Below, piece by piece: positions 4,442-41,100 of a DNA stretch of 64,000 bases (positions are counted from its first letter, which is position 1; every line of letters starts with the position of its first letter). The notes beneath the pieces were generated by a model. That model made no database searches. It was given only the letters and a program-made list of their open reading frames with translations, and had not been told where the DNA came from. This DNA comes from Emticicia sp. CRIBPO. GTDB lineage: Bacteria; Bacteroidota; Bacteroidia; Cytophagales; Spirosomataceae. The stretch covers positions 88,808 through 152,807 of the forward strand of contig NZ_JAAAKV010000003.1 in assembly GCF_009905725.1 (NCBI RefSeq). Reading direction: 5' to 3'. Made by a program: the position numbers and the translations under genes.

Positions 4442-4939
4442 TTGACGGAAAAAGGACAGCAACATATTTTCGAGCAATGGCTGAGTCAGCATAAAGCACT
4501 GGTCTTTAAGGTCGTGAGGGCATATGCTTTTACGGCGATGGACCAGGATGACCTCTTCCAGGAAATCAGCATACAGGTATGGCGTTCCGTTACTGCTTTC
4601 CGGCAGGAGTCGTCTGTCACGACCTGGCTGTACAGGATTGCCCTCAATACGGCCATAAAATGGGTCAGGAAAGAACGGAAACACCAGCAGGATGGCAACC
4701 TGGAGGAGGTAGAGCATGTGTTACAGGAAAACAAAATGCCTGTTGACGAACGCCTGGTGTGGCTTTACGAGGAGATTTCCAGGCTGGATGAAATCGACCG
4801 CTCTGTGACCTTGCTGATGCTGGACAACTTCAGCTACAAGGAAATGGCGGATATCCTGGGCATTACCGAGTCAAACGTGGGGGTGAAGATCAACCGCATC
4901 AAAAAACATCTTATTTCAAAATCAAAAAAGTACAGTTAA
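4442..4939 (+). CDS. RNA polymerase ECF-type sigma-70 factor
   Basis: Sigma70 region 2 (LFQEISIQVWR...TWLYRIALNTAI) and region 4 HTH (YKEMADILGITESNVGVKINRIKKHL). Confidence 0.85.
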   Translation: MTEKGQQHIFEQWLSQHKALVFKVVRAYAFTAMDQDDLFQEISIQVWRSVTAFRQESSVTTWLYRIALNTAIKWVRKERKHQQDGNLEEVEHVLQENKMPVDERLVWLYEEISRLDEIDRSVTLLMLDNFSYKEMADILGITESNVGVKINRIKKHLISKSKKYS

Positions 4940-4941
4940 AA

Positions 4942-5511
4942 ATGGAATTTGACGACATGAAAAAAATCTGGGACACCCAAAACAACGAGCCGCTTTACGC
5001 GGTCAATGAAACGGCATTGCACCACCGCATCCTTTCCAAAAAGAGGAAGGGTTTTCATATCACGAATATCAGCGAATGGCTGTCGGTGCTGGTTTATGGA
5101 GGCACAGCCTGTTTTATCTTTGGGGTGAATTTCTACAAACAAAGCGGGAATGTCTGGATGTATGTGCTGGCCGCATGGATGCTGGGCAGTGCTTTGTATA
5201 CCCTTGTGAGCCGTATCCGCAGGATCAGGGGGGAGCGGCAGTTTGACCGCACGATGAACGGTGACCTGGCCCATGCCATTTCGGTGGCGGCTTACCAGGT
5301 GCGGCTTTCGTTCCTGATGCGTTGGAATATCCTGCCAATGGGTTTACTGACGGTACTGAGTGTTCTCGACAATGGAAAATCGGTCTGGGTGGCGGTTGGC
5401 GTACTGGTATTTTTTGTAATAAGTTATTACGCAGGCGGCTGGGAGCATAATATTTATAAAAACAGGAAGCATGAGCTGGAGGTGTTGCAAAATAAGCTGG
5501 AGAGCTGTTAG
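4942..5511 (+). CDS. Membrane protein, putative anti-sigma factor partner of the upstream ECF sigma
   Basis: Starts 3 bp after the sigma gene stop. Contains several predicted TM helices. The classification is contextual only. Confidence 0.45.
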   Translation: MEFDDMKKIWDTQNNEPLYAVNETALHHRILSKKRKGFHITNISEWLSVLVYGGTACFIFGVNFYKQSGNVWMYVLAAWMLGSALYTLVSRIRRIRGERQFDRTMNGDLAHAISVAAYQVRLSFLMRWNILPMGLLTVLSVLDNGKSVWVAVGVLVFFVISYYAGGWEHNIYKNRKHELEVLQNKLESC

Positions 5512-5605
5512 CTGTTAACCATTGGCTTTTAGCTGTTTTTAGTATGTTACCTGTTGATTATCAGTGTGATAATATTAAATAGTAGTCTCTTAGTGGTGGA
5601 TCGGC

Positions 5606-6010
5606 TTAGGATGCGATTTTGTCTTTTTCCATGATGATATTTCGGTGTTCCTGGCCCCAGTTGTAGAGTTCGTGGAGGAGTTTGTCAAGGGATTTCCCAT
5701 GCGGGGTGATGGAGTATTCGACCGTAGGGGGGAAAGTGTCGAAGACTTCCCTTTTGATCAGCTTGTTCATTTCCAGGGCTTTTAGTTCTTTCGAAAGCAT
5801 CTTGTCTGTAATGCCGTAAACTTCCTTTGATATCTGTTTGAAACGTTTGTTGCCCATAGACAGACTGAGCATGATCAGGAGTTTCCAGCGGCCCTCCAGG
5901 GCTTCCAGGGCATCTTTCATGGCTAATATATTGAACGGACATCCTTCTCCTGCCAACATGGTTTCTTTTAATTTAACTGCGTTACTATCTTTCCGGATAG
6001 TGCTATCCAA
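5606..6010 (-). CDS. HxlR-family winged-helix transcriptional regulator
   Basis: CPFN...LEALEGRWKLLIMLSL...FKQISKEV...ITDKMLSKELKALE is the canonical HxlR/MarR-like HTH. Confidence 0.8.
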   Translation of the reverse strand: MDSTIRKDSNAVKLKETMLAGEGCPFNILAMKDALEALEGRWKLLIMLSLSMGNKRFKQISKEVYGITDKMLSKELKALEMNKLIKREVFDTFPPTVEYSITPHGKSLDKLLHELYNWGQEHRNIIMEKDKIAS

Positions 6011-6036
6011 AGAGATAGTACTATATCATGGATAGT
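5985..6036. promoter_or_regulatory. Three consecutive CTATC-N6-GATAG dyads in the HxlR/DoxX divergent intergenic region. Candidate HxlR operators.
   Basis: CTATCtttccgGATAG, CTATCcaaagaGATAG and ACTATatcatgGATAGT, read directly from the sequence. Confidence 0.35.
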
Positions 6037-6081
6037 AAAGATAGATAGTTTTGTGTCATCATTCAAAAAAATAACAAAACA

Positions 6082-6441
6082 ATGAAAGCAAAACGCATTA
6101 TTCCCATCATCCTGACAGGTATTCCGGCACTGGTGCTGATCATAGGAGGAGTTTCAAAAATCATCGGCACAGAACCGGAACCCGTCGTGGAATTCCTGAC
6201 CAGGCTGGGCTTCAGGGAGTATTTCATCCCCATAGGTATCATAAGTTTAGTCATCGCAGGCCTCCTGTTATATCCCAAAACCACCAGGATCGGATTTTTA
6301 TCTGCCATCTGTTATTTCAGCGGAGCTTTATCCCTCGAAATCGCCGGGAAACAGCCCGTCGTTTCTGTTGTCTTTCTGATACTGCTTTGGACAGGGATGT
6401 TTTTAAAAGATAAGGGAATGTTTCTTCCATCTGAAAAATAA
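6082..6441 (+). CDS. DoxX-family small membrane protein
   Basis: 119 aa with 3-4 TM helices, divergent from an HxlR regulator. The HxlR-DoxX pairing is typical. Confidence 0.6.
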   Translation: MKAKRIIPIILTGIPALVLIIGGVSKIIGTEPEPVVEFLTRLGFREYFIPIGIISLVIAGLLLYPKTTRIGFLSAICYFSGALSLEIAGKQPVVSVVFLILLWTGMFLKDKGMFLPSEK

Positions 6442-6707
6442 CGGCTTTGAGGCCCGCAGCCTATGTGAAGATGGGTAGTCCAGTAGGGACGTTACATCGG
6501 TAGAAAAGAAATGTATCATAAGAATAAAATCCCGTAGGCCCGCCCGGCGTGACCACCAGGGCGGACGGGGATGACATATTCACGGCGATAAAAATGTTGT
6601 CCCTTGAGAATTGTATTTACACCGATTTACATTCAATTTACACTGATTTTACAAAACACCGGATCCGGGAATCTACATTTGGGCATCTTTGAATAACATT
6701 TAAACAG

Positions 6708-7868
6708 ATGAATGAGATGGGCCGGATGATGATTTTTATTTTGATGTGTTTGTGTTTTACCGCCTGCCACGGGCAAAAGGAGACCGGATCTAATGAACTA
6801 CTGGGGCATCCTAAAGTGGTGAAACCTTTTGGTACCCATCCGTACACCAACATCCGGTGCAGCATACAGGACAGAAAAGGAAACCTGTGGTTTGGTACGA
6901 CCGGTGCCGGGGTGTACCGGTATGACGGCAAGATTTTTACCAATTTTACCCAAAAAGACGGCCTCAGTCATGATGTGGTGTATTGTATCCTGGAAGACAA
7001 GGCCGGGAATATCTGGTTTGGGACGAAGGATGGTGTCTGCCGCTTTGACGAGAAAAAACGACCTTCGGGGAAAGCCGGGTTCATCCGTTTGCCTTTGCCT
7101 GAAATCGATGACGATCATAATTATTTTGTGTCGCTTAAAAATGATGCCCCGGTTCGTTATGCCTTTGACCGGAAATCGGTTTTCAGTATGGCCGAGGATA
7201 AAGCCGGGAACATCTGGATGGGCACCGGTAACGCGGGTTTGTTCCGTTTCGACGGGGTGAATTTTATCAATTATAAAAATTACAACGGCACCTGGGAGGT
7301 CGCTAACAAGGACAGTGTCAACAGGGGCCATTGTTTTTATCATATCCTGATCCAGAGTGTTGCGGCAGACCGGAAAGGAAATGTGTGGTTCAGTGCCCTT
7401 GGTGATCAGAGCGGGGTATACCGTTATGACGGAAAGGCCATTGCCCGTTTCTCTTTTGATAAGCCTATCAAAAGCCTCGTAAGCTGGATCAAAGAAGACA
7501 AAGCCGGGAACATGTGTTTCGGCTCAAGGGATGAGGGTGTTTGCCGCTATGACGGCAAGACGTTTACGTATTTCACGAGTAAAAATGGTCTTTGCAGTAA
7601 TTTTACGACAGATATGTTGGAAGACAAAAGCGGGAATTTATGGTTCAGTAGCAGTCTCCTGGAAAACGAAGGCCGGACAAAAGGCTGTGTGACCCGCTTT
7701 GATGGGAAGACTTTTAAGCAGGTTTCACTGGAAGGGCTGGGTAATACCTCTGTCTGGACTATGCTGGAAGATAAAAAAGGGTATGTGTGGTTGGGTGCCA
7801 GGAATGTGGGTTTGTACCGTTACGACGGCAAATCATTTACTGATTTTACGGGAGAAACGGCCAGATAA
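6708..7868 (+). CDS. Secreted lipoprotein composed of two-component-regulator propeller (Reg_prop) repeats
   Basis: Signal peptide with lipobox (LMCLCFTACHG). Multiple repeats of the type KGNLWFGT..GVYRYDGK.FT.FT.KDGL. Confidence 0.7.
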   Translation: MNEMGRMMIFILMCLCFTACHGQKETGSNELLGHPKVVKPFGTHPYTNIRCSIQDRKGNLWFGTTGAGVYRYDGKIFTNFTQKDGLSHDVVYCILEDKAGNIWFGTKDGVCRFDEKKRPSGKAGFIRLPLPEIDDDHNYFVSLKNDAPVRYAFDRKSVFSMAEDKAGNIWMGTGNAGLFRFDGVNFINYKNYNGTWEVANKDSVNRGHCFYHILIQSVAADRKGNVWFSALGDQSGVYRYDGKAIARFSFDKPIKSLVSWIKEDKAGNMCFGSRDEGVCRYDGKTFTYFTSKNGLCSNFTTDMLEDKSGNLWFSSSLLENEGRTKGCVTRFDGKTFKQVSLEGLGNTSVWTMLEDKKGYVWLGARNVGLYRYDGKSFTDFTGETAR

Positions 7869-7880
7869 TAAGGATTTTTC

Positions 7881-8969
7881 ATGAATTGTTTTCATAAAGA
7901 CAAGCAAAGGTGGTATCACCTGGTGCTGCCTGTGCTGTTGTGCATCAGCTCCGGTGAAGGGCAGCTTAAATCAGCTCAGAAAAGCGATGCATCCAAAGAA
8001 AAAGCCGGCAGGTTTCCTGTGGTAACTCCCGGAAGTTATGGCATTGAACCGGACCTTTCACTGCAGGTGAGTGAGTATATCCGCCGGATTCTGCAGGATA
8101 AGAAAGGAAACCTCTGGTTTGGAACGAACGATCAGGGTGCGTGCCGGTATGATGGTAAATCCCTGGCTTATTTTACACCCAAAGAAGGCATGGGCGGAGA
8201 GGTGGTGCGAAGTATCATAGAAGACAGAAAAGGAAACCTGTGGTTTGGGACCAATGGGGGTGTCACGAGGTATGACGGTAAAATATTTACCAATTTTACG
8301 ACCAAAGACGGATTGCCTCATAACGAGGTCTGGAGTCTCATTCAGGATAATTCCGGAAACATCTGGGCGGGTACACTGAACGGTGTTTGCCGCTACAACG
8401 GGAAAAAATTTATCGCATTCGCTCTTCCGGAGTCAGGTATTGAAAAACCGTCCTACAGGTTTACACCTGCATTGGTCTGGCACATGACGGCCGATAAAAA
8501 GGGGAATGTCTGGTTGGGTACAGACGGGGCCGGGGTGTACAGATTCAATGAGAAAAATGGCTTTAGGCACTTTTCTGAGAAAGATGGACTGGGCTGCAAC
8601 AACGTCACCCATATCCTGGAGGACCGAAACGGGAACGTTTGGTTTGGGGGCCGCCAGAAAGGCGGATTGAGCCGTTTTGACGGAAAGAAGTTCACGAACT
8701 TCAGCACAAAAGACGGGATGAGCAGCAACGCCGTCTGGTCGATTTTCGAAGACAAGGGCGGGATCCTTTGGTTATCTACGGACGGGATAGACCGTTTTGA
8801 CGGAAAGAAGTTTACCCATATCAATAAAAAAGACGGCCTGATAAACACAGCCGTGCAGAGCATTTTTGAAGACCGGGAAGGCCGGATGTGGTTCGGGACG
8901 GGGGCGGGCTTGTACCGTTTTAATGGCAAGGTTGCTGTCAATGTGACCAAAAAAGGACCCTGGAAGTAG
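7881..8969 (+). CDS. Secreted Reg_prop beta-propeller repeat protein, tandem paralog of the previous gene
   Basis: The same repeat architecture (KGNLWFGTNDQGACRYDGK...). Confidence 0.7.
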   Translation: MNCFHKDKQRWYHLVLPVLLCISSGEGQLKSAQKSDASKEKAGRFPVVTPGSYGIEPDLSLQVSEYIRRILQDKKGNLWFGTNDQGACRYDGKSLAYFTPKEGMGGEVVRSIIEDRKGNLWFGTNGGVTRYDGKIFTNFTTKDGLPHNEVWSLIQDNSGNIWAGTLNGVCRYNGKKFIAFALPESGIEKPSYRFTPALVWHMTADKKGNVWLGTDGAGVYRFNEKNGFRHFSEKDGLGCNNVTHILEDRNGNVWFGGRQKGGLSRFDGKKFTNFSTKDGMSSNAVWSIFEDKGGILWLSTDGIDRFDGKKFTHINKKDGLINTAVQSIFEDREGRMWFGTGAGLYRFNGKVAVNVTKKGPWK

Positions 8970-15329: not shown

Positions 15330-15743
15330 TTAAATGTGTTTTTTCAACGACGCTGAAATATTCTTGATAAAACTTTCTTTGTCTTTTTTTACTTCTTTTA
15401 AAAATTTTTTATGCTGATCTGATATAGCGAAATTCTTCTCCCCCCACAGATATATTTCTATAAGTACAGGCAAGAGATCTATTCCTTTCGCTGTGAGTTT
15501 GTAAAGAACTTTTGCTTTACTTTCCGGGTGCACGATTTTACTGATGACACCTGTTTGCTCAAGTGTTTCCAGTCTTGAAGCCAGAATATTCGTGGCTATT
15601 TTTTCCTCTGATTTTAAAAAATCGCCATAAGTACACTGTTTGGCGTACATCAGGTCCCTGATGATCAGTAAGGACCATTTGTCTCCCCAAATGTCAAGCG
15701 AACTGCTGACGGGGCATCCTGACCTTTTTTTGATTGATCCCAT
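15330..15743 (-). CDS. HxlR-family transcriptional regulator
   Basis: CPVSSSLDIWGDKWSLLIIRDL...ILASRLETLEQTGVI. Confidence 0.8.
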   Translation of the reverse strand: MGSIKKRSGCPVSSSLDIWGDKWSLLIIRDLMYAKQCTYGDFLKSEEKIATNILASRLETLEQTGVISKIVHPESKAKVLYKLTAKGIDLLPVLIEIYLWGEKNFAISDQHKKFLKEVKKDKESFIKNISASLKKHI

Positions 15744-17847: not shown

Positions 17848-18756
17848 TCAACCAAACGCCTGCCTGAACTCGAGCGGACTTTGGCGGGTCTTGGCTTTGA
17901 ACAGTTTGCTGAAAGACTGTGAATGTTCGAAACCCAGGGTGTAGGCAATTTCGCTCACTGTGAGTTCGGTGGTCGACAGTTTTTCTTTGGCTTTGCTGAT
18001 CAGTTTTTCATGAATGACCTGCTGGGTGGTTTGGCCGGTAAGTTGTTTCAGCAGGCTGCTCAGGTATTTGACCGAAACATTGAGCTGATCTGCCGCATAA
18101 TGAACGGTCGGCAGGCCTTCCGATAGCAGGTCCTCATTGCTGAAATAGTCGTCGAGCACTTCTTCCAGCCGTTCCAGTAACCTGCTGCTGCTGATCTTCC
18201 GGGTGATGAACTGGCGTTCGTAAAACCTCGTGGCATAGGTAAGCAACAGCTCGAGCTGGGCGATAATGACCTCCTGGCTGAATTTGTCCATATTGCCGCT
18301 GTATTCGTTCAGGATATTGTCTTTGATGCCGTTAACTAAGCCTTCTTCCTTATCAGAAAGAAACAGAGCCTCGTTGGCAGCATAGCTGAAAAAATTGTAG
18401 GTCCTGATCTTTCTGGCAAGCTGGGTGTTCCATAGAAAGTCCGGGTGAATGAACAGCATCCAACCTTCCAGTCTGGCAGGAACGCCGCCTTCTTCCCCGC
18501 GTAAAACCTGTCCCGGAGCCATAAAGGCCATCAGCCCCTCGTCAAAATCGTATTTCTGCTGTCCGTAAAACAGCTTATCACAACCCCTCTTGAGCGAGAT
18601 CACATAGAAATCGAGCAGGACGGCCTGAATTTCTGTGTCATTTCGGAGACCGCTGACATCAATAAGGGTGATCAGCGGATGGTTGGGTTTAGGCATGCCC
18701 ATCAGCCGGTGTATTTCACTGATGGATTTTAAACGGTAAGGTTTTGCGGTCGCCAT
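17848..18756 (-). CDS. AraC-family transcriptional regulator
   Basis: C-terminal double HTH (VSEIAYTLGFEHSQSFSKLFKAKTRQSPLEFRQ). Confidence 0.85.
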   Translation of the reverse strand: MATAKPYRLKSISEIHRLMGMPKPNHPLITLIDVSGLRNDTEIQAVLLDFYVISLKRGCDKLFYGQQKYDFDEGLMAFMAPGQVLRGEEGGVPARLEGWMLFIHPDFLWNTQLARKIRTYNFFSYAANEALFLSDKEEGLVNGIKDNILNEYSGNMDKFSQEVIIAQLELLLTYATRFYERQFITRKISSSRLLERLEEVLDDYFSNEDLLSEGLPTVHYAADQLNVSVKYLSSLLKQLTGQTTQQVIHEKLISKAKEKLSTTELTVSEIAYTLGFEHSQSFSKLFKAKTRQSPLEFRQAFG

Positions 18757-18765
18757 TTACTTTAT

Positions 18766-19110
18766 TCAGAATTTAAACGGATACTTTAACCAGATCAGCA
18801 GCAGTGGCATAGCCAGGAAAGGAATTTCCATCAGGGCCATTTTTACATTGCCGCTGTGCAGCGACAAGGCCATAATCAGCACGATCGTGAGGGCATTGAG
18901 AAGGTTGCCCAGGAAAAAGGTCTGGGGAAACAGCAGCAGCAGCCCCGTCAGGATAGAAATGGCTCCCACATAAGGCATGGCACTTTTCCCTATGCCCAGG
19001 TCTGCCATCATTTTGGTTTGTTCGGCATTGGCAGGCTGAAAGGCATCCCAGCCGTGTTTGAGGCTGAGAAAAGCGGAGACAGCCAGGAGAAGGATACTAA
19101 GGATCTTCAT
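18766..19110 (-). CDS. DoxX-like small membrane protein
   Basis: 114 aa with 4 TM helices, in an apparent operon with the SDR and AraC genes. Confidence 0.55.
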   Translation of the reverse strand: MKILSILLLAVSAFLSLKHGWDAFQPANAEQTKMMADLGIGKSAMPYVGAISILTGLLLLFPQTFFLGNLLNALTIVLIMALSLHSGNVKMALMEIPFLAMPLLLIWLKYPFKF

Positions 19111-19139: not shown

Positions 19140-19916
19140 TTATTTTCCATACATAAAAGAAGCTCCCATTTTACCGGATTGGGAAATCAGGAATTTTGGG
19201 GCAATCCGGCTCATGACCCGCATCAGCTTAGCGATGCCCGGGTATATTTCGGTTTTATCCTGCTGCATACCCCTGATGGCAGCCTCAACGATCTTTTCCG
19301 GAGCCATAAGCAGGCTGGTGCTGAAGCCGTCTTCTCCTTTAAATTTATCATTCAGCGGGGTAGAAGAGCCCGGAGCTATCAGTTCAATGACTTTTATTCC
19401 GGTGTTTTTCAGCTGGACACGGAGGGCCTGGGTATAAGAGCGAAGACCGGCCTTGCTGGCACTGTAAACAGGGGATATGGCAAAAGGAAGCAGGGCGATG
19501 CCTGAGGTTACGTTCAGGATAGCGGCGTTGGTTTTTGTTTTCAGATGGGGCAAAAATTGCTGTATCATGCGGACAGGCCCCATCAGGTTGATGTCGATTT
19601 CACGGGTGATGTCGTGCAGGTCGTGGTCATGGTGCAGGCTGATCTTCCGCATTTCCCCGGCGTTGTTGATCACGATGTTGAGCTCCGGAAAATCCCTGGT
19701 GACTTTTTCAAAGAGAGCTTCGATGTCACTGGTTTTGCTGACATCACTTTGAATGACGTGTACGCCGGGTAGTTTCAGTTTGATTTCCTGCAGTTTCCGG
19801 ACGTCCCTTCCGGTGACGATGACGGTGTTGTTAAGGGCCAGCAGTCGCGACGTAAATTCGAAGCCAAAGCCCCCGGTGCCGCCTGTAATCAGAATGGTGT
19901 TGTTTTGTAGTTTCAT
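19140..19916 (-). CDS. SDR-family oxidoreductase
   Basis: ILITGGTGGFGFEF Rossmann motif and YSASKAGLRS active-site motif. Start chosen at MKLQNN. Confidence 0.8.
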   Translation of the reverse strand: MKLQNNTILITGGTGGFGFEFTSRLLALNNTVIVTGRDVRKLQEIKLKLPGVHVIQSDVSKTSDIEALFEKVTRDFPELNIVINNAGEMRKISLHHDHDLHDITREIDINLMGPVRMIQQFLPHLKTKTNAAILNVTSGIALLPFAISPVYSASKAGLRSYTQALRVQLKNTGIKVIELIAPGSSTPLNDKFKGEDGFSTSLLMAPEKIVEAAIRGMQQDKTEIYPGIAKLMRVMSRIAPKFLISQSGKMGASFMYGK

Positions 19917-20047
19917 TTTTTCATTTTTTTGATACCACAAAGTTCGTGAGTTGCCGGGAGACGGATGTAGCCAAAAGTCGCAGTGTTGTAGTGAAAAGTC
20001 AGTTGACCGGTTGGTTTGGGTCATGTTGTCCGGTCAGGGAGAATTTT

Positions 20048-20278
20048 TACGTTGGAGCGGCGTAAAGTTACGTTGGAGCGATGTAAGTTTACGTTGGAGC
20101 GGCGTAAAGTTACGTTGGAGCGATGTAAGTTTACGTTGGAGTGATGTAAGTTTACGTTGGAGCGATGTAAGTTTACGTTGGAGCGATGTAATTCTAAGTT
20201 GGGGCAATGTAATTTTACGTTGGAGCATTGTAGTTTTACGTTGGAGCGACGTAATTCTACGTTGGGGCAATGTAACTG
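20048..20278. repeat. Tandem array of 11 copies of a 21-bp unit (consensus TACGTTGGAGCGATGTAAGTT). Each unit has internal dyad symmetry TTACGT/ATGTAA.
   Basis: Unit-by-unit reading of the sequence. The last five units are degenerate. Located between the divergent SDR and epimerase genes. Confidence 0.9.
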
Positions 20279-20397
20279 TTCTTTAGTATAAAAATGCTGG
20301 AAATACTGAAATCCTGTCTCAAAAAAGCCCTTCCGGGAATCTATGCGGTCTGATCAGAGTTGTATAGAAGCTGATATATATTCAATAAGTTAACCAT

Positions 20398-21057
20398 ATG
20401 AAAATCAAAGCTATAGTGACCGGGGCTACCGGCATGGTCGGGGAGGGCGTACTGCTGGAATGTCTGAAAAATCCTGAAGTAGAGCAGGTATTGGTAATCA
20501 ACAGACGGCCGGGTGGCATTTCCCATCCCAAGTTGAAGGAAATTATTCATGGTGATTTTTTCAACCTGGCTCCCATAGAAAAAGAACTTAGCGGGTACAA
20601 TGCCTGCTATTTCTGCCTTGGAGTCTCGTCTGTCGGGATGAGCAAGGAAGATTACAAACATTTTACCTTTGACCTCACCGTAAATTTCGGGCAGCTGATG
20701 GCCAAACTGAATCCTGAGATGACTTTCTGTTATGTCACCGGCAGCGGTACTGACAGCAGTGAGCAGGGCAGCATTGCCTGGGCCAGGGTAAAAGGAGCCA
20801 CAGAGAACGTCCTGATCCGCTTGTTTAAAAACGCGTACATGTTCAGGCCCGGTTTTATGAAAGCTACAGCAGGTCAGAAAAACGTGAAGAGTTATTACAC
20901 CTACCTTGCGTGGCTGTATCCGGTCGGACGCCTGCTATTTCCTTCGGGTTTCTGTACCCTGGAGGAGGTCGGCAAGGCCATGATCAATGTCACGGTGAAA
21001 GGTTACTCAAAGCAGATCATTGACGTGAAGGATATTGTGGAGATAGCGAAATTATAA
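20398..21057 (+). CDS. NAD(P)H-binding domain protein (atypical SDR/epimerase-like)
   Basis: N-terminal VTGATGMVGEGVL Rossmann motif. Confidence 0.7.
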   Translation: MKIKAIVTGATGMVGEGVLLECLKNPEVEQVLVINRRPGGISHPKLKEIIHGDFFNLAPIEKELSGYNACYFCLGVSSVGMSKEDYKHFTFDLTVNFGQLMAKLNPEMTFCYVTGSGTDSSEQGSIAWARVKGATENVLIRLFKNAYMFRPGFMKATAGQKNVKSYYTYLAWLYPVGRLLFPSGFCTLEEVGKAMINVTVKGYSKQIIDVKDIVEIAKL

Positions 21058-24570: not shown

Positions 24571-26040
24571 GTGACAGATTTGACAGAGACATTCTGGGAA
24601 ACGACATACAAACAAAATATCGGCAAAATGACCGGGATTTGTTACAGGTATACCGGCGACAGGGAAGTGGCCGGTGACCTGGCCCATGATGCATTTCTGA
24701 CGGCTATCGGTAAATCATCAGGTTTTGAGGGAAAAGGGCCTTTTGAAGCATGGCTGTGGCGTATCACGGTGAATGTGGCCTTGCAGTACCTGCGTGAGCA
24801 AAAGAAAAGGAAGTACCTCGACGACTGGATGACTTACACTACCAATGTTATGGAAACTCAGGAAGACAATCTTGCTCATGAAGATGGCGGTTTCTCGGAA
24901 GAAGAACTTTTAAAGGCGATCGACGGATTGCCTGAGCATCATAAACTGGTCTTCAATCTTTATGTGATAGACAACTTTACCCATGCTCAGATCGCTCAGG
25001 AACTGGGCATCAGTGAAGGCACCTCCAAGTCACACCTGGCCAGGGCCAGGAAGAAGATCAGGGAAATACTCAATGATCAGATAAAAGAAGACCGGAAGAA
25101 AAGGAAATACGCCTTCTTTCTGCTTGTGCTTCCTTATAAATTCTGGAATATTGACGGGCTTTACCGGAAGAAATTCAGGAATTTCAGGATGAAACCCAGG
25201 AAAGTATGGAAAACGGATTCTGTTGACTTCAGTAAGTTTTCAAGGCCTGCAGTGATATCTTCTGCCATTTATAGCATGAACTATTTCATGATCAGCGTTT
25301 TATCCGGCACCGTAGCTGCGGTACTCTTCCTGGTATATAACTTTTCAAAGGAAACAGATATGGCAGGCTCCGGGCTTATCCCTGTAATAAATACTGTGAG
25401 TAATCCTGCAACTCAATTTTCCGGGGAACAAAAGGAGTCGCCGGCAAAGGATGTAAGCAATAAGAACTTTCTCCCTGAAAAGATTAAATCAACATTTTCT
25501 GATTCAACAGATGCCACCATTTCAGAAAAGGGCATCATATTAAGTGAAAACATTAATAAAATTGAAAACATGAAAAGATTTAAAACCTTAGGAGCGATGC
25601 TCGTGGCCGGGTCCGCCCTGGCATTTGACTCGGCAGGCCAGGTCAAACAAAATGCTGCACCATCACTGGTGGTTGAAAATCAGGAGACCGGGAATGTTAT
25701 ATCGTTCAATCAGCCTGAGAAAAAGAAGCCCGTGAGTGATAATGCTTCCGGAACGTTTTATGCCGAAAGGTTGTCCTGGTCTTCTTCAGATAACGAACTT
25801 TACTTTAAGGGCAAAGTGGTGATTGATGTGGAAGACAACAAGTTTGTTGGAAACGGCACTTTTACTTTCCTGGGTAAGGTATACTACTTGGTTTTTGAAA
25901 ACGCCCCGGTAAAAACAAATTCTACCCTGAAACTGACGGAAAAAAAATATGCACTGAAAAAGCTATCACCCCGCAAAGCGATGGATAAGTACGGTGAAAA
26001 CGGAAAAAACGGAGCAGTGGAAATATCACTGGCTGAGTAA
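24571..26040 (+). CDS. ECF sigma-70 factor fused in-frame to a transmembrane segment and a ~230-aa extracytoplasmic C-terminal domain (sigma/anti-sigma-like fusion)
   Basis: Region 2 (AHDAFLTAIG...WLWRITVNVAL) and region 4 (AQIAQELGISEGTSKSHLARARKKI) in the first ~170 aa. Then a hydrophobic helix (FMISVLSGTVAAVLFLVY) and a Ser/Asn-rich domain. The ORF is uninterrupted. Confidence 0.65.
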   Translation: MTDLTETFWETTYKQNIGKMTGICYRYTGDREVAGDLAHDAFLTAIGKSSGFEGKGPFEAWLWRITVNVALQYLREQKKRKYLDDWMTYTTNVMETQEDNLAHEDGGFSEEELLKAIDGLPEHHKLVFNLYVIDNFTHAQIAQELGISEGTSKSHLARARKKIREILNDQIKEDRKKRKYAFFLLVLPYKFWNIDGLYRKKFRNFRMKPRKVWKTDSVDFSKFSRPAVISSAIYSMNYFMISVLSGTVAAVLFLVYNFSKETDMAGSGLIPVINTVSNPATQFSGEQKESPAKDVSNKNFLPEKIKSTFSDSTDATISEKGIILSENINKIENMKRFKTLGAMLVAGSALAFDSAGQVKQNAAPSLVVENQETGNVISFNQPEKKKPVSDNASGTFYAERLSWSSSDNELYFKGKVVIDVEDNKFVGNGTFTFLGKVYYLVFENAPVKTNSTLKLTEKKYALKKLSPRKAMDKYGENGKNGAVEISLAE

Positions 26041-26242
26041 CATAAACATCCTTACTTTAGGATTGAATATCTGCAGGATATATTCCGGCTGAAAATAGCC
26101 GGAATATAAATTTCAACCAATTGACTTAGAATTTACACTTCTTTACATACAATTTACTTCTTCTGCATTATTTTCCCTTTATTTCGCTGAACTTCTGACC
26201 GCAAATGTCTGCGAGTACGGAAGATCATCTAAAAAGCAACCT

Positions 26243-27391
26243 ATGATCAAGTGCTGTAACCCTGTTAATACCCTCCTGTTATTGGGGATGTTCTTTGTGT
26301 CCTGCAACGGGCAGGTCAAAACCAATATGAATAGTGACGAGCCAAAAAAGGCCCGGCCCAAACTGATCAGAAGTCTGGGTACTGACAAACATCAGAACGT
26401 GCATTGCGGACTGCAGGACAAAACGGGCAACCTCTGGTTTGGAACTACCGGAGAAGGTGTCTATCGGTACGACGGTACCTCATTTATCAATTTTACGATG
26501 AAAGACGGATTGAACAGCAATACCATCTGGTCTGTTCTGGAGGATAAAAACGGTAACATCTGGTTCGGCACAGCAGACGGGATTTGCCGTTATGACGGCA
26601 AAGCTTTTGCCCGTGTCTCGATTCCTGCGATGACCGGCAGCTATTTTCAAACCAATAATTCACCGGATAACCCGTCTGCGAAGAATGCCGTGTGGAGCAT
26701 CATGCAGGACAAAAGCGGGAAACTCTGGTTCGGTACAGACTTTGGTCTTTATTGCTATAATCAGAAAACTTTTACCCGTTTTCTGGATGACCATACGATC
26801 ATCAATAAGGAAGGCCTCGGACTGAAGTCGGTACAATGCATGCTGCAGGATAAAAACGGCAATATCTGGCTTGGATCGGGTGTGGCAGAGAGTGAGGGTT
26901 TATGTCTTTTCGACGGAAAATCCCTGACCCGTTTTAAGCCCAACGGCGATGGCTGGATCAGGTCCATTTTAGAAGATAAAAAAGGGAATTTATGGTTGGC
27001 CTGCCGGTTCCACGGGCTGGCATTTTATGACGTCCGGCTGAATGAAAAAGCCGGTCAGCAGAAAACCTTTGTCAATTTTACAGAGAAAGAAGGACTGAGT
27101 GAGAACGGAGCGGGGACTCTTATGGAAGATAAATCGGGGAATATATGGTTTGCCGCCGAGAAAGCCAATGTTCCTGAAAACGAAAAAGGTGGTCTGTGGC
27201 TTTACGACGGCCACCTGGAAGAAAAAGCAGGGCAAAAGAAATCATTTAAAAACTTTACAGTCAAAGACGGCCTGGTCAATAACGCCATCTGGTGTATTCT
27301 GGAAGATAAGGCCGGCCACCTGTGGATAGGCAGCAGGGACATGGGTTTGTGCCGGTATGACGGCAAAACCTTTACCCGGTTTTCAGAATAA
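26243..27391 (+). CDS. Secreted lipoprotein of Reg_prop beta-propeller repeats (third paralog)
   Basis: Lipobox (LGMFFVSCNG). Repeats KTGNLWFGTTGEGVYRYDGTSF.NFT.KDGL. Confidence 0.7.
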   Translation: MIKCCNPVNTLLLLGMFFVSCNGQVKTNMNSDEPKKARPKLIRSLGTDKHQNVHCGLQDKTGNLWFGTTGEGVYRYDGTSFINFTMKDGLNSNTIWSVLEDKNGNIWFGTADGICRYDGKAFARVSIPAMTGSYFQTNNSPDNPSAKNAVWSIMQDKSGKLWFGTDFGLYCYNQKTFTRFLDDHTIINKEGLGLKSVQCMLQDKNGNIWLGSGVAESEGLCLFDGKSLTRFKPNGDGWIRSILEDKKGNLWLACRFHGLAFYDVRLNEKAGQQKTFVNFTEKEGLSENGAGTLMEDKSGNIWFAAEKANVPENEKGGLWLYDGHLEEKAGQKKSFKNFTVKDGLVNNAIWCILEDKAGHLWIGSRDMGLCRYDGKTFTRFSE

Positions 27392-27602: not shown

Positions 27603-28856
27603 ATGTCTGAGAGAATAAGAGAAAAACTGCAGATACTGGCCGATGCGGCCAAATACGATGTGTCCTGTTCGTCCAGCGGCAGTGACCGGAAAAACACCAG
27701 CAAGGGGATAGGGGACACAGGTTCTGGTATCTGCCACAGCTATACAGAAGATGGTCGCTGCGTGTCGCTTCTGAAGATATTGCTGACCAATCACTGTATT
27801 TATGATTGTGCCTTTTGTGTGTCACGAAGCAGCAATGACATCAAACGGGCTGCTTTTACGGTGGAAGAAGTCGTGGAGCTCACCATGAATTTTTACCGGA
27901 GGAATTACATCGAAGGCCTGTTTCTCAGTTCCGGCATTTTTAAGAACGCCGATTTCACGATGGAGCGGATGTTGAAGATTGTGAAGAAACTACGCCTGGA
28001 GGAGAACTTTAACGGGTACATTCATCTCAAGACCATTCCCGGTGCCAGCGAAGAAATGGTGACGGAGGCCGGATTATATGCCGACAGGATGAGCATTAAT
28101 CTTGAAATGCCCACTGAGCTGGGGCTTAAAATGCTGGCTCCGGAAAAATCACATGAAGAAGTGAAGAAAGAGCTCGGCGTGATCAGGAATAAGTTTATCC
28201 AGTATGCAGATGAAAAGAAAATCATCAAAAGTGTTCCTAAGTTTGTCCCGGCAGGCCAGAGTACCCAGATGGTGGTGGGAGCCACTCCTGAGTCCGACAA
28301 AGACATCATGGGTACGGCCGATGCCTATTACAAAGCCTTTTCATTAAAACGCGTTTATTACAGTGCCTATATCCCGATCAGCCACGACAGCCGGATGCCT
28401 GTGATCGGCACACAGCCTTCGCTGATCCGAGAGAACAGGTTGTACCAGACTGACTGGCTCATGCGGTTTTATAAATTTGATGTGAAAGAAATCCTGAACG
28501 ACCAGCACCCTCATCTCGACATGGAAATTGATCCGAAACTAAGCTGGGCTTTAAGAAATCCACAGGCGTTTCCGGTGGACATCAATACTGCCGATTATGC
28601 GATGATCCTCAGGGTGCCTGGCATCGGCCTGCGGTCAGCCCAAAAAGTGATTGCTGCACGGCAGTATGGGAAACTGCACATTTATCAGCTGAAAAACCTG
28701 GGGATTTCTTATAACAAAGCCCAGTATTTTATCCGCTGTGCGGACAGCCCGTTTCAGTTGAACGAAAAGGAGCCTCATGTGCTGCGGCGGATGATTCTTC
28801 AGAACAGTAAAAGCAAATATGCCAGACAACCCACCAATCAACTAAGCCTTTTCTGA
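27603..28856 (+). CDS. Putative DNA modification/repair radical SAM protein (TIGR03916-like)
   Basis: CxxxCxxC-type cluster motif NHCIYDCAFC and a helix-hairpin-helix-like tail. Paired with the downstream DUF4130-like gene, with a TGATG overlap. Confidence 0.75.
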   Translation: MSERIREKLQILADAAKYDVSCSSSGSDRKNTSKGIGDTGSGICHSYTEDGRCVSLLKILLTNHCIYDCAFCVSRSSNDIKRAAFTVEEVVELTMNFYRRNYIEGLFLSSGIFKNADFTMERMLKIVKKLRLEENFNGYIHLKTIPGASEEMVTEAGLYADRMSINLEMPTELGLKMLAPEKSHEEVKKELGVIRNKFIQYADEKKIIKSVPKFVPAGQSTQMVVGATPESDKDIMGTADAYYKAFSLKRVYYSAYIPISHDSRMPVIGTQPSLIRENRLYQTDWLMRFYKFDVKEILNDQHPHLDMEIDPKLSWALRNPQAFPVDINTADYAMILRVPGIGLRSAQKVIAARQYGKLHIYQLKNLGISYNKAQYFIRCADSPFQLNEKEPHVLRRMILQNSKSKYARQPTNQLSLF

Positions 28857-38100: not shown

Positions 38101-41100
38101 GAAGCCCTGATTGTGGCTTTCCCTATCCTGATATTATGGTTTATAGGGCCGGGCATTGCCTGGAAACTCAGCTTGCCGGAAAAAGAAAAAAGTTCGGGCT
38201 TAAACGAGCTGCAGGTGTCGTACCTGAACAGGCTTTCCCGCAAAACCTGGGCTTATTTCGAAACCTTTGTCAACGAAACTGAAAACTGGCTGCCGCCTGA
38301 TAATTTCCAGGAGCAACCTCACCCTGTCATAGCCCACCGGACATCACCGACCAACCTCGGCATGTCATTGCTCTCCAACCTGGCGGCGTATGATTTCGGG
38401 TACATTGGCGGAGCTGAGCTTTTGTCGAGATGCAACAACTCCCTGCAAACCATGATGATCATGGAGCGTTACAAAGGGCATTTTTATAACTGGTACGACA
38501 CACAAACACTGTCGCCTTTGCATCCGAGGTATGTTTCTACTGTGGATAGCGGTAACCTGGCCGGTCACCTGCTCACCCTGCGTCAAGGGCTGCTGTCTCT
38601 GCCTCATGATCCTGTGGTCGACAGAAAAACCTTTGAAGGGATTCTCACCACTGTCGAGATCGTCAGGGAATTATCGAAAGACCGCCCGTCTAAACTGATG
38701 GACAAAATGACAGCTGCCTGTCAGACAGCACTGTCGGAAATGAATTCCCTGAAAAAAATCTGGGGACACCTGAATGAACTTGCAGAAACCGGGAAAGAAC
38801 TGTCCCTGCACATGTCCGGAAAAGAACCGGAGGCCTATCAGTGGACTAAAAAATTGTCGCTTCAGATTGAGCATATCCGGCAGGACCTGATAGACCTTGT
38901 GCCGTGGCTGAGTGAACACGGGCAGTTTACAGCTTCCCTGCCTTTTGATGAAATACCCTCCCTGATGTCTGTTCAGGGCATATATGAAAACGGCAATGAC
39001 CTGCCCGAGTCCTTAAAAGAATGCTTAAAGGCCGGTAATATGGTAGCCAATCAGCGGATCATACTTTCTCAGCAACTGGCGGCTCAGTGTGAGGAACTGA
39101 GTGATATGGAATATGATTTTCTTTATGATAACACCACCAGTCTGCTCAGGATCGGCTTTAATGTAGATGAACTCAGACGCGACGATAGTTTTTATGACTT
39201 ACTGGCTTCTGAAGCCCGTCTGGGTATTTTTGTAGCCATAGCACAGGGAAAACTGCCCCAGGAAAGCTGGTTTGCCCTGGGCAGGTTGCTGACCGATTCC
39301 GGCGGGGATCCCATCCTGTTGTCGTGGAGCGGTACTATGTTTGAATACCTGATGCCACAGCTGGTGATGCCGGTGTATGAAAATACCCTGCTGCATCAAA
39401 CCAACAAGGCCACCGTCAAAAGGCAGATTGACTACGCAGGACAACGGGGCGTGCCCTGGGGTATTTCTGAGTCGGCTTATAACATGGTTGACGCCAGCCT
39501 CAACTATCAATACCGGGCCTTTGGTGTGCCGGGGCTTGGCCTCAAGAGAGGTCTGGAAGAAGATCTTGTCATAGCTCCCTATGCTTCTATGATGGCCCTG
39601 ATGGTTTCACCTGATCAGGCCTGCGTCAATTTACAGCATTTATCTGAAAAAGGTTTTGAGGGGGAATACGGTTTTTATGAAGCCATTGATTACACACCTG
39701 CCAGGTTGCCGAGGGGTAAGACCCACACGATTATTAACTCATTTATGGTGCACCACCAGGGCATGGGCTTATTGTCACTGGCTTATTTATTGCTGAACAA
39801 GCCTATGCAGCAGAGGTTTATGGCTGAATTGCGTTTTCAGGCCACTATCTTGCTGCTGCAGGAAAGGATCCCGAGAACCACCGTTTTCTATGCTCATACG
39901 GCTGATATTTCGGAATCTCATACCGAAACTACCGAATTGCAGATCAGGAACATCCCGACACCGAATACCCAGATACCGGAAATCCAGTTGCTCAGCAACG
40001 GCCGTTACCAGGTGATGGTGACCAACTCAGGTGGAGGATACAGCCGCTGGAAGGATATTGTGGTAACAAGATGGCGGGAAGATACCACCCAGGATAACCG
40101 CGGCATTTTCTGCTATATCAAAGATGTCAATACCGGTAATTTCTGGTCCAACACCCATCAGCCTACTTTAAAAGTGGCGAAGTCTTATGAAGCCCTTTTC
40201 TTCCAGGGACATGCGGAGTTCCATCGTGAGGATTTCGGGATTGAGACCAAAACAGAGATCGTGATTTCTCCGGAAGATGATACCGAAATGAGACGGGTAA
40301 GGATCAAAAACAAGACGCAATCGACGAAAATACTCGAGATAACGAGTTATGCTGAGATTGTCATGGCAAGCCAGGCTTCGGATGAGGCCCACCCGGCATT
40401 CAGCAATCTTTTCGTACAGACTGAGATTCTTGAAGAACATAATGCCATTCTTTGTACCCGCCGGCCGAGGTCTGAAGGCGAAACCCCGCCGTGGATGTTC
40501 CACCTCATGGATGTGCGTGGGGGTGAAGTGGAGGGCGTGTCGTATGAAACGGACCGGATGCAGTTTACAGGGCGTGGCAAAACCCTGGCTCGTCCGCAGG
40601 CTATGGAGCAGGATAAATTATCCGGAAAACAGGGCTCTGTACTTGATCCTATTCTTTCCATCCGTTACCGCATCGCCGTAAAACCTAACCAGGCGACTAC
40701 CATCGATTTGATTTACGGCATCAGCGAAACCAAAGAAGGCTGTCTGAACCTGTTGCACAAATACCTGGATCGTCACCTCAAAAAACGGGCTTTCGAATTG
40801 TCCTGGACACACTCGCAGGTGTTGCTGAGGCAGATCAATGCCACGGATGCGGATGCACAGTTGTATGACCGCCTGGCAGCTTCTGTCATTTATGCCAATC
40901 CTGTTTTGAGGGCTGATCCTGCCGTCATTCTTAATAATTACCGGGGACAGTCCGGACTCTGGAGTCATTCGGTTTCCGGTGATATTCCGATAGTGTTGCT
41001 GCATATTTATGATACGGAGAATATAGACTTGGTCAAACAGATGGTACAGGCCCATGCCTACTGGCGTCTGAAAGGCCTGGCAGTGGACCTGGTCATCTGG

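Follow-up and report, generated by a model that had tools for sequence, protein, structure and literature searches.

A 21-bp tandem array between divergent promoters in Emticicia sp. CRIBPO, probably a lineage-specific minisatellite of variable copy number

Genomic context of the array

The window analysed here is a stretch of 64,000 nucleotides (64 kb) from Emticicia sp. CRIBPO. Within it, a 481-bp intergenic gap separates an SDR-DoxX-AraC operon on the minus strand from a plus-strand gene encoding a 219-aa NAD(P)-binding protein, and this gap holds a tandem array of eleven 21-bp units. A preliminary description, made from the sequence alone, had placed the array between divergent SDR and NAD(P)-binding genes, and the ORFs together with Pfam assignments confirmed the flanking genes as described. 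The features of the locus, with the evidence by which each was placed, are as follows.

17848-18756, minus strand: AraC-family regulator (HTH_18, PF12833), third gene of the operon (Pfam, homologues)
18766-19110, minus strand: DoxX_2-like membrane protein, second gene of the operon (Pfam, synteny)
19140-19916, minus strand: SDR gene (PF00106), 258 aa, start MKLQNN, first gene of the operon (Pfam, records in other assemblies)
19938-19945, minus strand: GAACTTTG, kept in orthologous loci (pattern search)
19951-20286, plus strand: spurious 111-aa ORF with the heptad LRWSDVS (in the sister species L009 the ORF starts and stops elsewhere)
19959-20000, minus strand: AraC/XylS-type operator, half-sites GACTTTTCACTACAACACTGC and GACTTTTGGCTACATCCGTCT at 21-bp spacing (upstream alignment, PWM)
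20004-20036, no strand: hairpin-capable spacer TGACCGG-N19-CCGGTCA between operator and array (sequence, comparison)
20034-20270, minus strand: spurious 78-aa ORF (stop-free unit frames)
20040-20049, no strand: left arm, AGAATTTTTA, of an AT-rich 10-nt inverted repeat (inverted-repeat search)
20046-20275, no strand: tandem array, 11 x 21 bp, consensus TTTACGTTGGAGCGATGTAAG (Tandem Repeats Finder, unit table, pattern searches)
20046-20192: units 1-7, the variable part of the array, in which the copy-number differences between strains fall (allele comparison)
20193-20275: units 8-11, fixed and more diverged, adjoining the 219-aa gene (allele comparison, unit table)
20289-20298, no strand: right arm, TAAAAATGCT, of the AT-rich 10-nt inverted repeat (inverted-repeat search)
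20398-21057, plus strand: 219-aa NAD(P)-binding gene (Epimerase / YbjT-like; Pfam)

The start of the SDR gene was taken as the ATG at 19916 because the 258-aa form beginning with MKLQNN is on record in other assemblies; a 294-aa extended form of this ORF was not on record. The array ends about 120 bp (122 bp) upstream of the start codon of the 219-aa gene, whose product matches a protein of Emticicia sp. CRIBPO at 100% identity and has only three further sequences at 95-99% identity, followed by proteins of ~80% identity in other genera. On the other side, the operator lies outside the array, on the side of the SDR start codon and 45 bp from the array, and the hairpin-capable spacer in between was poorly conserved in the sister species. 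The AT-rich inverted repeat brackets the array, with arms complementary at 9/10 positions in the window and at 10/10 in the sister species, and may be a product of chance.

With respect to the wider surroundings, the window also contains a second divergent gene pair, for an HxlR regulator (5606-6010, minus strand) and a DoxX_2 protein (6082-6441, plus strand), and a further HxlR regulator at 15330-15743. The same region encodes two SDRs, a quinone-oxidoreductase-type ADH and a glyoxalase, and has the appearance of a gene island for electrophile/quinone detoxification. Two paralogous modules, at 4442-8969 and 24571-27391, each open with an ECF-type sigma factor and continue with proteins made of Reg_prop (two-component regulator propeller) repeats; in the second module the sigma factor (489 aa) is fused to a C-terminal part that is uncharacterised. 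A cluster at 27603-33974, comprising a radical-SAM/HHH protein, a DUF4130 protein, a WYL-WCX regulator (minus strand), a Band_7/SPFH protein and an RtcB RNA ligase, looks like a nucleic-acid repair or stress module. At 35164-43806 the plus strand carries an exceptionally long ORF (2880 aa).

Structure of the array

Tandem Repeats Finder resolved positions 20046-20275 into 11.0 copies of a 21-bp period with 84% matches, 0% indels and a score of 292, so that the eleven-copy array of the preliminary description is real and free of indels; no other strong tandem repeat was reported in the 64-kb window. Pattern searches over the same 64 kb gave eight occurrences of the 20-mer unit at up to 3 mismatches (0.01 expected) and ten occurrences of the direct core TACGTTGG (1.26 expected), all of them within the array. 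Each unit combines the conserved direct core with a variable remainder. The units are contiguous and head-to-tail, with no unique spacers between the repeats; this agrees with the earlier statement that the locus is not a CRISPR array, and it is the arrangement of VNTRs and minisatellites, whose spacer-free head-to-tail units measure about 10-100 bp. Units 3-4 are a duplicate of units 1-2, and hence a 42-bp higher-order duplicate is present within the array. Degeneration toward the epimerase side had also been correctly noted: units 8-11 are the most divergent, and they are at the same time those fixed across strains.

Each unit had further been said to contain a dyad, TTACGT-N7-ATGTAA. This was true of part of the array, the exact dyad being found in only 5/11 units. 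Allowing ACGTAA brought the count to 6/11, and the perfect form TTACG-N9-CGTAA was present in 3/11 units.

Copy number across strains

Orthologous intergenic regions were taken from contigs encoding close relatives of the 219-aa protein, and gave the following alleles.

L010 / L011 (ENA and JGI): 9 copies
Window: 11 copies
L006 / L007 (NCBI MAG DLHH01 and JGI): 15 copies
L009, sister species (JGI; 95% protein identity): 17 copies

The alleles of 9, 11, 15 and 17 copies differed by exact multiples of 21 bp; the copy numbers derive partly from short-read assemblies, which are able to collapse repeats, and single values may be imprecise. Flank identity was 98.4-98.8% among the strains with 9, 11 and 15 copies and ~87-92% between these and the sister species. 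The comparison of copy number among strains that the preliminary description had proposed as a check therefore revealed 9, 11 and 15 copies despite flanks that are ~98.5% identical, and its suggestion of a minisatellite prone to slippage is borne out by alleles that always differ by whole 21-bp units. Since strains with 98.4-98.8% identical flanks differ by whole units, the locus is a genuine VNTR, and from the copy-number and flank data it follows that the length of the array changes faster than the flanks gain substitutions.

Comparison of the window with L010 showed a clean 42-bp step equal to one unit pair, the duplicate formed by units 1-2 and 3-4 being absent in L010/L011. Units 8-11 were identical in the window, L010 and L006, and the internal units had turned over. 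The array was kept at the same position across the species split, and its terminal unit, with a GGGG variant, was still recognisable in the sister species. There, the units were a homogenised variant with lineage-specific changes common to the units (...GCGGTGTRKT), a pattern which, read from the sequences, indicates concerted evolution. Both these shared substitutions and the 42-bp duplicate correspond to the in-array homogenisation and higher-order duplication by which VNTRs and minisatellites are recognised.

The possibility raised earlier that the array is an assembly artefact is excluded, as independent NCBI, JGI and ENA assemblies (four assemblies) span the array with unique flanks. All Logan short-read contigs of the clade (L001, L002, L003, L008 and L012) end inside the array, from both sides, as expected for short reads at a repeat of ~230 bp.

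A conserved operator and promoter outside the array

The AraC-family regulator is 68-79% identical across Larkinella, Dyadobacter, Spirosoma, Filimonas, Pedobacter, Flavobacterium and others, and a metagenome scan for it returned 80 loci, in the majority of which the gene order SDR-DoxX-AraC is kept. Alignment of the stretches that precede the SDR orthologues brought out a strongly conserved module in which two CTTTYnnCTACA half-sites are spaced by exactly 21 bp, with GAACTTTG(C) ~20 nt further on and the start codon after it. The module was present in 41 of these metagenome loci, from many Bacteroidota genera (among L017-L091), as well as in L006 and L009, and a pattern search of the window located it once, at 20000-19959 of the minus strand. 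Proteins of the AraC/XylS type bind to direct repeats, and the operator has the classical architecture of two direct repeats (PMC5481539). The module is presumably the autoregulated operator of the conserved AraC-family regulator. The -7 promoter element of Bacteroidetes has the consensus TAnnTTTG, which GAACTTTG resembles, and we infer that GAACTTTG is the promoter of the SDR-DoxX-AraC operon.

No tandem array was found upstream of the operator in the 41 loci of other genera, and the closest AraC homologues outside the clade (77-78% identity) lie in other contexts and have no array. A TACGTTGGAG-like motif was absent from 461 kb of AraC-orthologue loci, and a survey of 481 kb of related Bacteroidota loci for comparable tandem repeats returned only one, at a different place (L091). 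This repeat, at 1320-1497 of L091, comprises 7.4 copies of a 24-bp unit, TATACAGGTGTTGGTGGTGGACTT, and may be coding. To judge from these loci, the array is an Emticicia-clade-specific addition upstream of a self-sufficient conserved promoter. We also looked at the array from the opposite side, as a conserved operator of the 219-aa gene. This was rejected, as orthologues of the gene in three genera (Spirosoma validum, Dyadobacter sediminis and Rhodocytophaga rosea) lie in other contexts and have nothing upstream that resembles the unit. Searches for similar DNA in plasmids, phages and viral contigs returned none.

Conservation within the repeat unit

The dyads had been interpreted as near-palindromic pairs of half-sites for regulator dimers. 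This interpretation found no support in the sister species, where 0/17 units keep the dyad and the hexamers are complementary at 2-4/6 positions, as compared with 5/6 in the window. What is kept in both species is a direct, not inverted, core: the 8-nt TACGTTGG is exact in 10/11 window units and in 14/17 units of the sister species. Also against an array of regulator dimers, the obvious candidate for binding, the adjacent AraC protein, is served by another operator, one that is strongly conserved and lies outside the array.

Among 27 distinct units the 9-nt core held ~6 of ~25 variant events, with ~10.7 expected (P ~0.05), a tally that is our own count from the unit table for a core picked partly after the data had been seen. 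The positions invariant in both lineages overlapped slightly more than expected (7 versus 4.7, P ~0.06), and indels were found in 0/52 units. Persistence across the species split, a near-untouched core, core-sparing variation and the lack of indels were counted against a plain minisatellite. These features match what an array of bound, phased sites would exhibit; concerted evolution or unequal exchange can also produce them.

Alternative explanations

One alternative holds that the array consists of amplified half-sites or decoys for the adjacent AraC-family regulator. Its period equals the 21-bp spacing of the two direct half-sites in the conserved operator, which is a real neighbour only 45 bp away, and direct repeats are what AraC/XylS proteins bind (PMC5481539). 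The units themselves, however, are unlike the half-sites. With a PWM built from 39 orthologous operators, the true half-sites scored 23.4 and 31.6 bits, whereas the best scores in the array were about -1.5 to -2.6 bits on either strand, below the 99.9th percentile of the window, and the best circular identity between unit and half-site was 11-12/21, the level of shuffled units. Since there is no PWM match, identity is at shuffle level and the operator occurs without any array in other genera, the array is not an amplified AraC operator, and we find the decoy explanation scarcely credible. The closest match among known phased direct-repeat binding sites was to those of LytTR response regulators such as AgrA, PlnC/D and ComE. 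LytTR sites are 9-bp direct repeats, [TA][AC][CA]GTTN[AG][TG], located 12-13 bp apart upstream of the -35 box (PMC5600425), and PlnC and PlnD bind TACGTTAAT-N12-TACGTTAAT (PMC2714321). If the array belonged to this type, its copy number would tune occupancy and it would act as an enhancer, decoy or insulator, with 9-mers that read toward the 219-aa gene. Each unit can be written as TACGTTGGA plus 12 nt, which matches the LytTR consensus at 8/9 positions in most units and at 9/9 in units 8 and 11 and contains the first six bases of the Pln repeat; the period of 21 = 9 + 12 held in 52/52 units, with a spacer of LytTR length, all units have a single orientation, toward the 219-aa gene, and the part conserved between species is the 9-bp core, the spacer part being variable. 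Against this, by our own calculation an 8/9 match arises by chance in ~27% of cases for a 21-mer read on either strand, and AraC/XylS sites, like any repeat of two helical turns, typically have a 21-bp period as well. Known LytTR promoters have two repeats just upstream of the -35 box and a cognate regulator nearby, not 9-17 units. Elsewhere in the window the site recurs neither singly nor as a pair, and no LytTR-domain protein was found among its Pfam-scanned ORFs, a set that omits the 2880-aa ORF at 35164-43806 and most ORFs of <150 aa. Neither a sigma-70-type scan, a model that does not cover Bacteroidetes promoters, nor inspection could place a promoter directly downstream of the last unit, and the same scan for promoters and terminators gave nothing useful. 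A literature search on 21-bp bacterial promoter arrays and LytTR sites in Bacteroidetes found nothing relevant. The LytTR resemblance is the most interesting of the likenesses but statistically weak; we regard binding by such a regulator as a tentative and rather unlikely reading, though the chief competitor of the one that we favour. We put somewhat less trust still in its fuller form, in which the array would be a copy-number-tunable, helically phased platform of 9-17 LytTR-like sites (9-bp core and 12-bp spacer) for a regulator or nucleoid protein encoded elsewhere.

As a further alternative, the array could belong to a non-autonomous mobile element that carries a minisatellite. The same phylum offers a precedent in the BrickBuilt MITE of Porphyromonas gingivalis, whose tandem 23-nt repeats, up to 22.8 of them and without spacers, are enclosed by a leader and a tail bearing terminal inverted repeats and occur in 19 strain-variable intergenic copies per genome (PMC4596501). 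Likenesses are the intergenic position, spacer-free repeats of ~21-23 nt, up to ~20 strain-variable copies and the spurious ORFs annotated over the repeats, and the 10-nt inverted repeat around the array (9/10 in the window, 10/10 in the sister species) could be read in the same sense. That repeat is short and AT-rich, however, in contrast to the IS5-like terminal inverted repeats of BrickBuilt; moreover the array is single in 64 kb, has no sequence similarity to BrickBuilt and has no transposase nearby. A pattern of the invariant positions of two adjacent units, scanned against representative genomes of 185,579 species, was found in only one MAG (Ignavibacteria, CAWIJF01), which carries two dispersed 21-bp arrays of unit ATGTAAGTTGGAGSTTTGTAG on two contigs (L004, 3004-3349; L005, 7026-7354), with 16.5 and 15.7 copies, unrelated intergenic contexts and a common left-flank motif, CTTGGrAAAGAGAAG. 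This suggests a BrickBuilt-like multi-copy minisatellite element in that MAG and shows that dispersed 21-bp arrays exist. The Ignavibacteria and Emticicia units have TAAGTTGGAG...TGTA in common and agree at only 4/10 of the positions not forced by the pattern; the flanks are unrelated and there is no leader or tail homology, and the resemblance across phyla is probably coincidental. A mobile element is thus, in our estimation, an improbable source of the Emticicia array. It could also be expressed, as a small heptad-repeat protein or a structured RNA. Two long ORFs cover it and are called by gene callers, which place a partial or full bogus LRWSDVS ORF over the array in the short-read contigs of the clade, and the plus-strand RNA has a very stable predicted fold (-115.6 kcal/mol, z = -8.6). 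Yet 4/6 unit frames are open just for want of stop codons, and the start and stop of the plus-strand ORF differ in the sister species, in line with the earlier view that the 111-aa and 78-aa ORFs are repeat artefacts. A homologue search with a chimeric four-frame peptide, an insensitive query, gave one irrelevant coiled-coil protein; products of the array ORFs are absent from the protein collection by exact look-up, and a search by ORF product is thus blind to such arrays. There was no Rfam match and, by sequence comparison, no conserved plus-strand promoter upstream, and the strong fold stems from the quasi-palindrome and G-U pairs, the minus strand reaching only z = -2.4. We hold expression of the array to be very unlikely. 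An iteron origin or partition site was also considered for the phased ~20-bp direct repeats that plasmid iterons and partition arrays have in common with this one, and was rejected: the array is chromosomal, its neighbours are redox and detoxification genes with no rep or par gene among them, and there is no plasmid or phage similarity.

Discussion

The explanation that we favour, with a probability of roughly 0.6, is that the array is a lineage-specific, copy-number-variable minisatellite (intergenic VNTR) between divergent promoters, distinct from the AraC-type operator beside it and most likely confined, on the sequences compared, to Emticicia sp. CRIBPO-like strains and their sister species. 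Such an array would grow and shrink by whole 21-bp units or unit pairs, presumably through slipped-strand mispairing in replication or unequal recombination between units, and the same exchange processes would homogenise the units within each lineage. It appears to occupy a non-essential spacer upstream of the operator and the -7 box of the SDR-DoxX-AraC operon, and we infer that it has no dedicated sequence-specific function. The most probable effect of a change in copy number would be to shift the spacing of the divergent promoters between about 190 and 360 bp. As each 21-bp step would amount to two helical turns, the rotational phase of the promoters would be kept, so that little or no effect on expression is to be expected. 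Phase variation of the classical kind, which acts through promoter spacing and had been among the functions proposed for the locus, is not applicable here, since the repeats are situated upstream of the operator and promoter and not within a core promoter or an ORF. A regulatory role for the array is possible, though unsupported.

Among known systems, bacterial intergenic VNTRs such as MLVA loci and those of mycobacterial MIRU type are similar in having intergenic head-to-tail units of tens of bp, whole-unit differences between strains, conserved unique flanks and homogenisation within lineages. The present array differs from these in its occurrence in a free-living member of the Cytophagales, its position between divergent promoters, a unit of exactly two helical turns and a conserved direct core.

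Irrespective of the array, a more useful result came as a by-product: the very conserved AraC-family regulator of SDR-DoxX operons now has a clearly defined operator and promoter that extend across the phylum. If the array were a platform for a bound protein after all, slippage would quantitatively retune the expression of the detoxification gene pair between strains, and the locus would act as a contingency enhancer or insulator with graded output, a type not known from Bacteroidota; a phased array that is bound would show in nature how the number of repeats can tune gene regulation. As a minisatellite and nothing more, it would provide a strain-typing marker for the Emticicia clade, and it would account for the breaks in short-read assemblies and for the bogus ORF that gene callers report at this locus.
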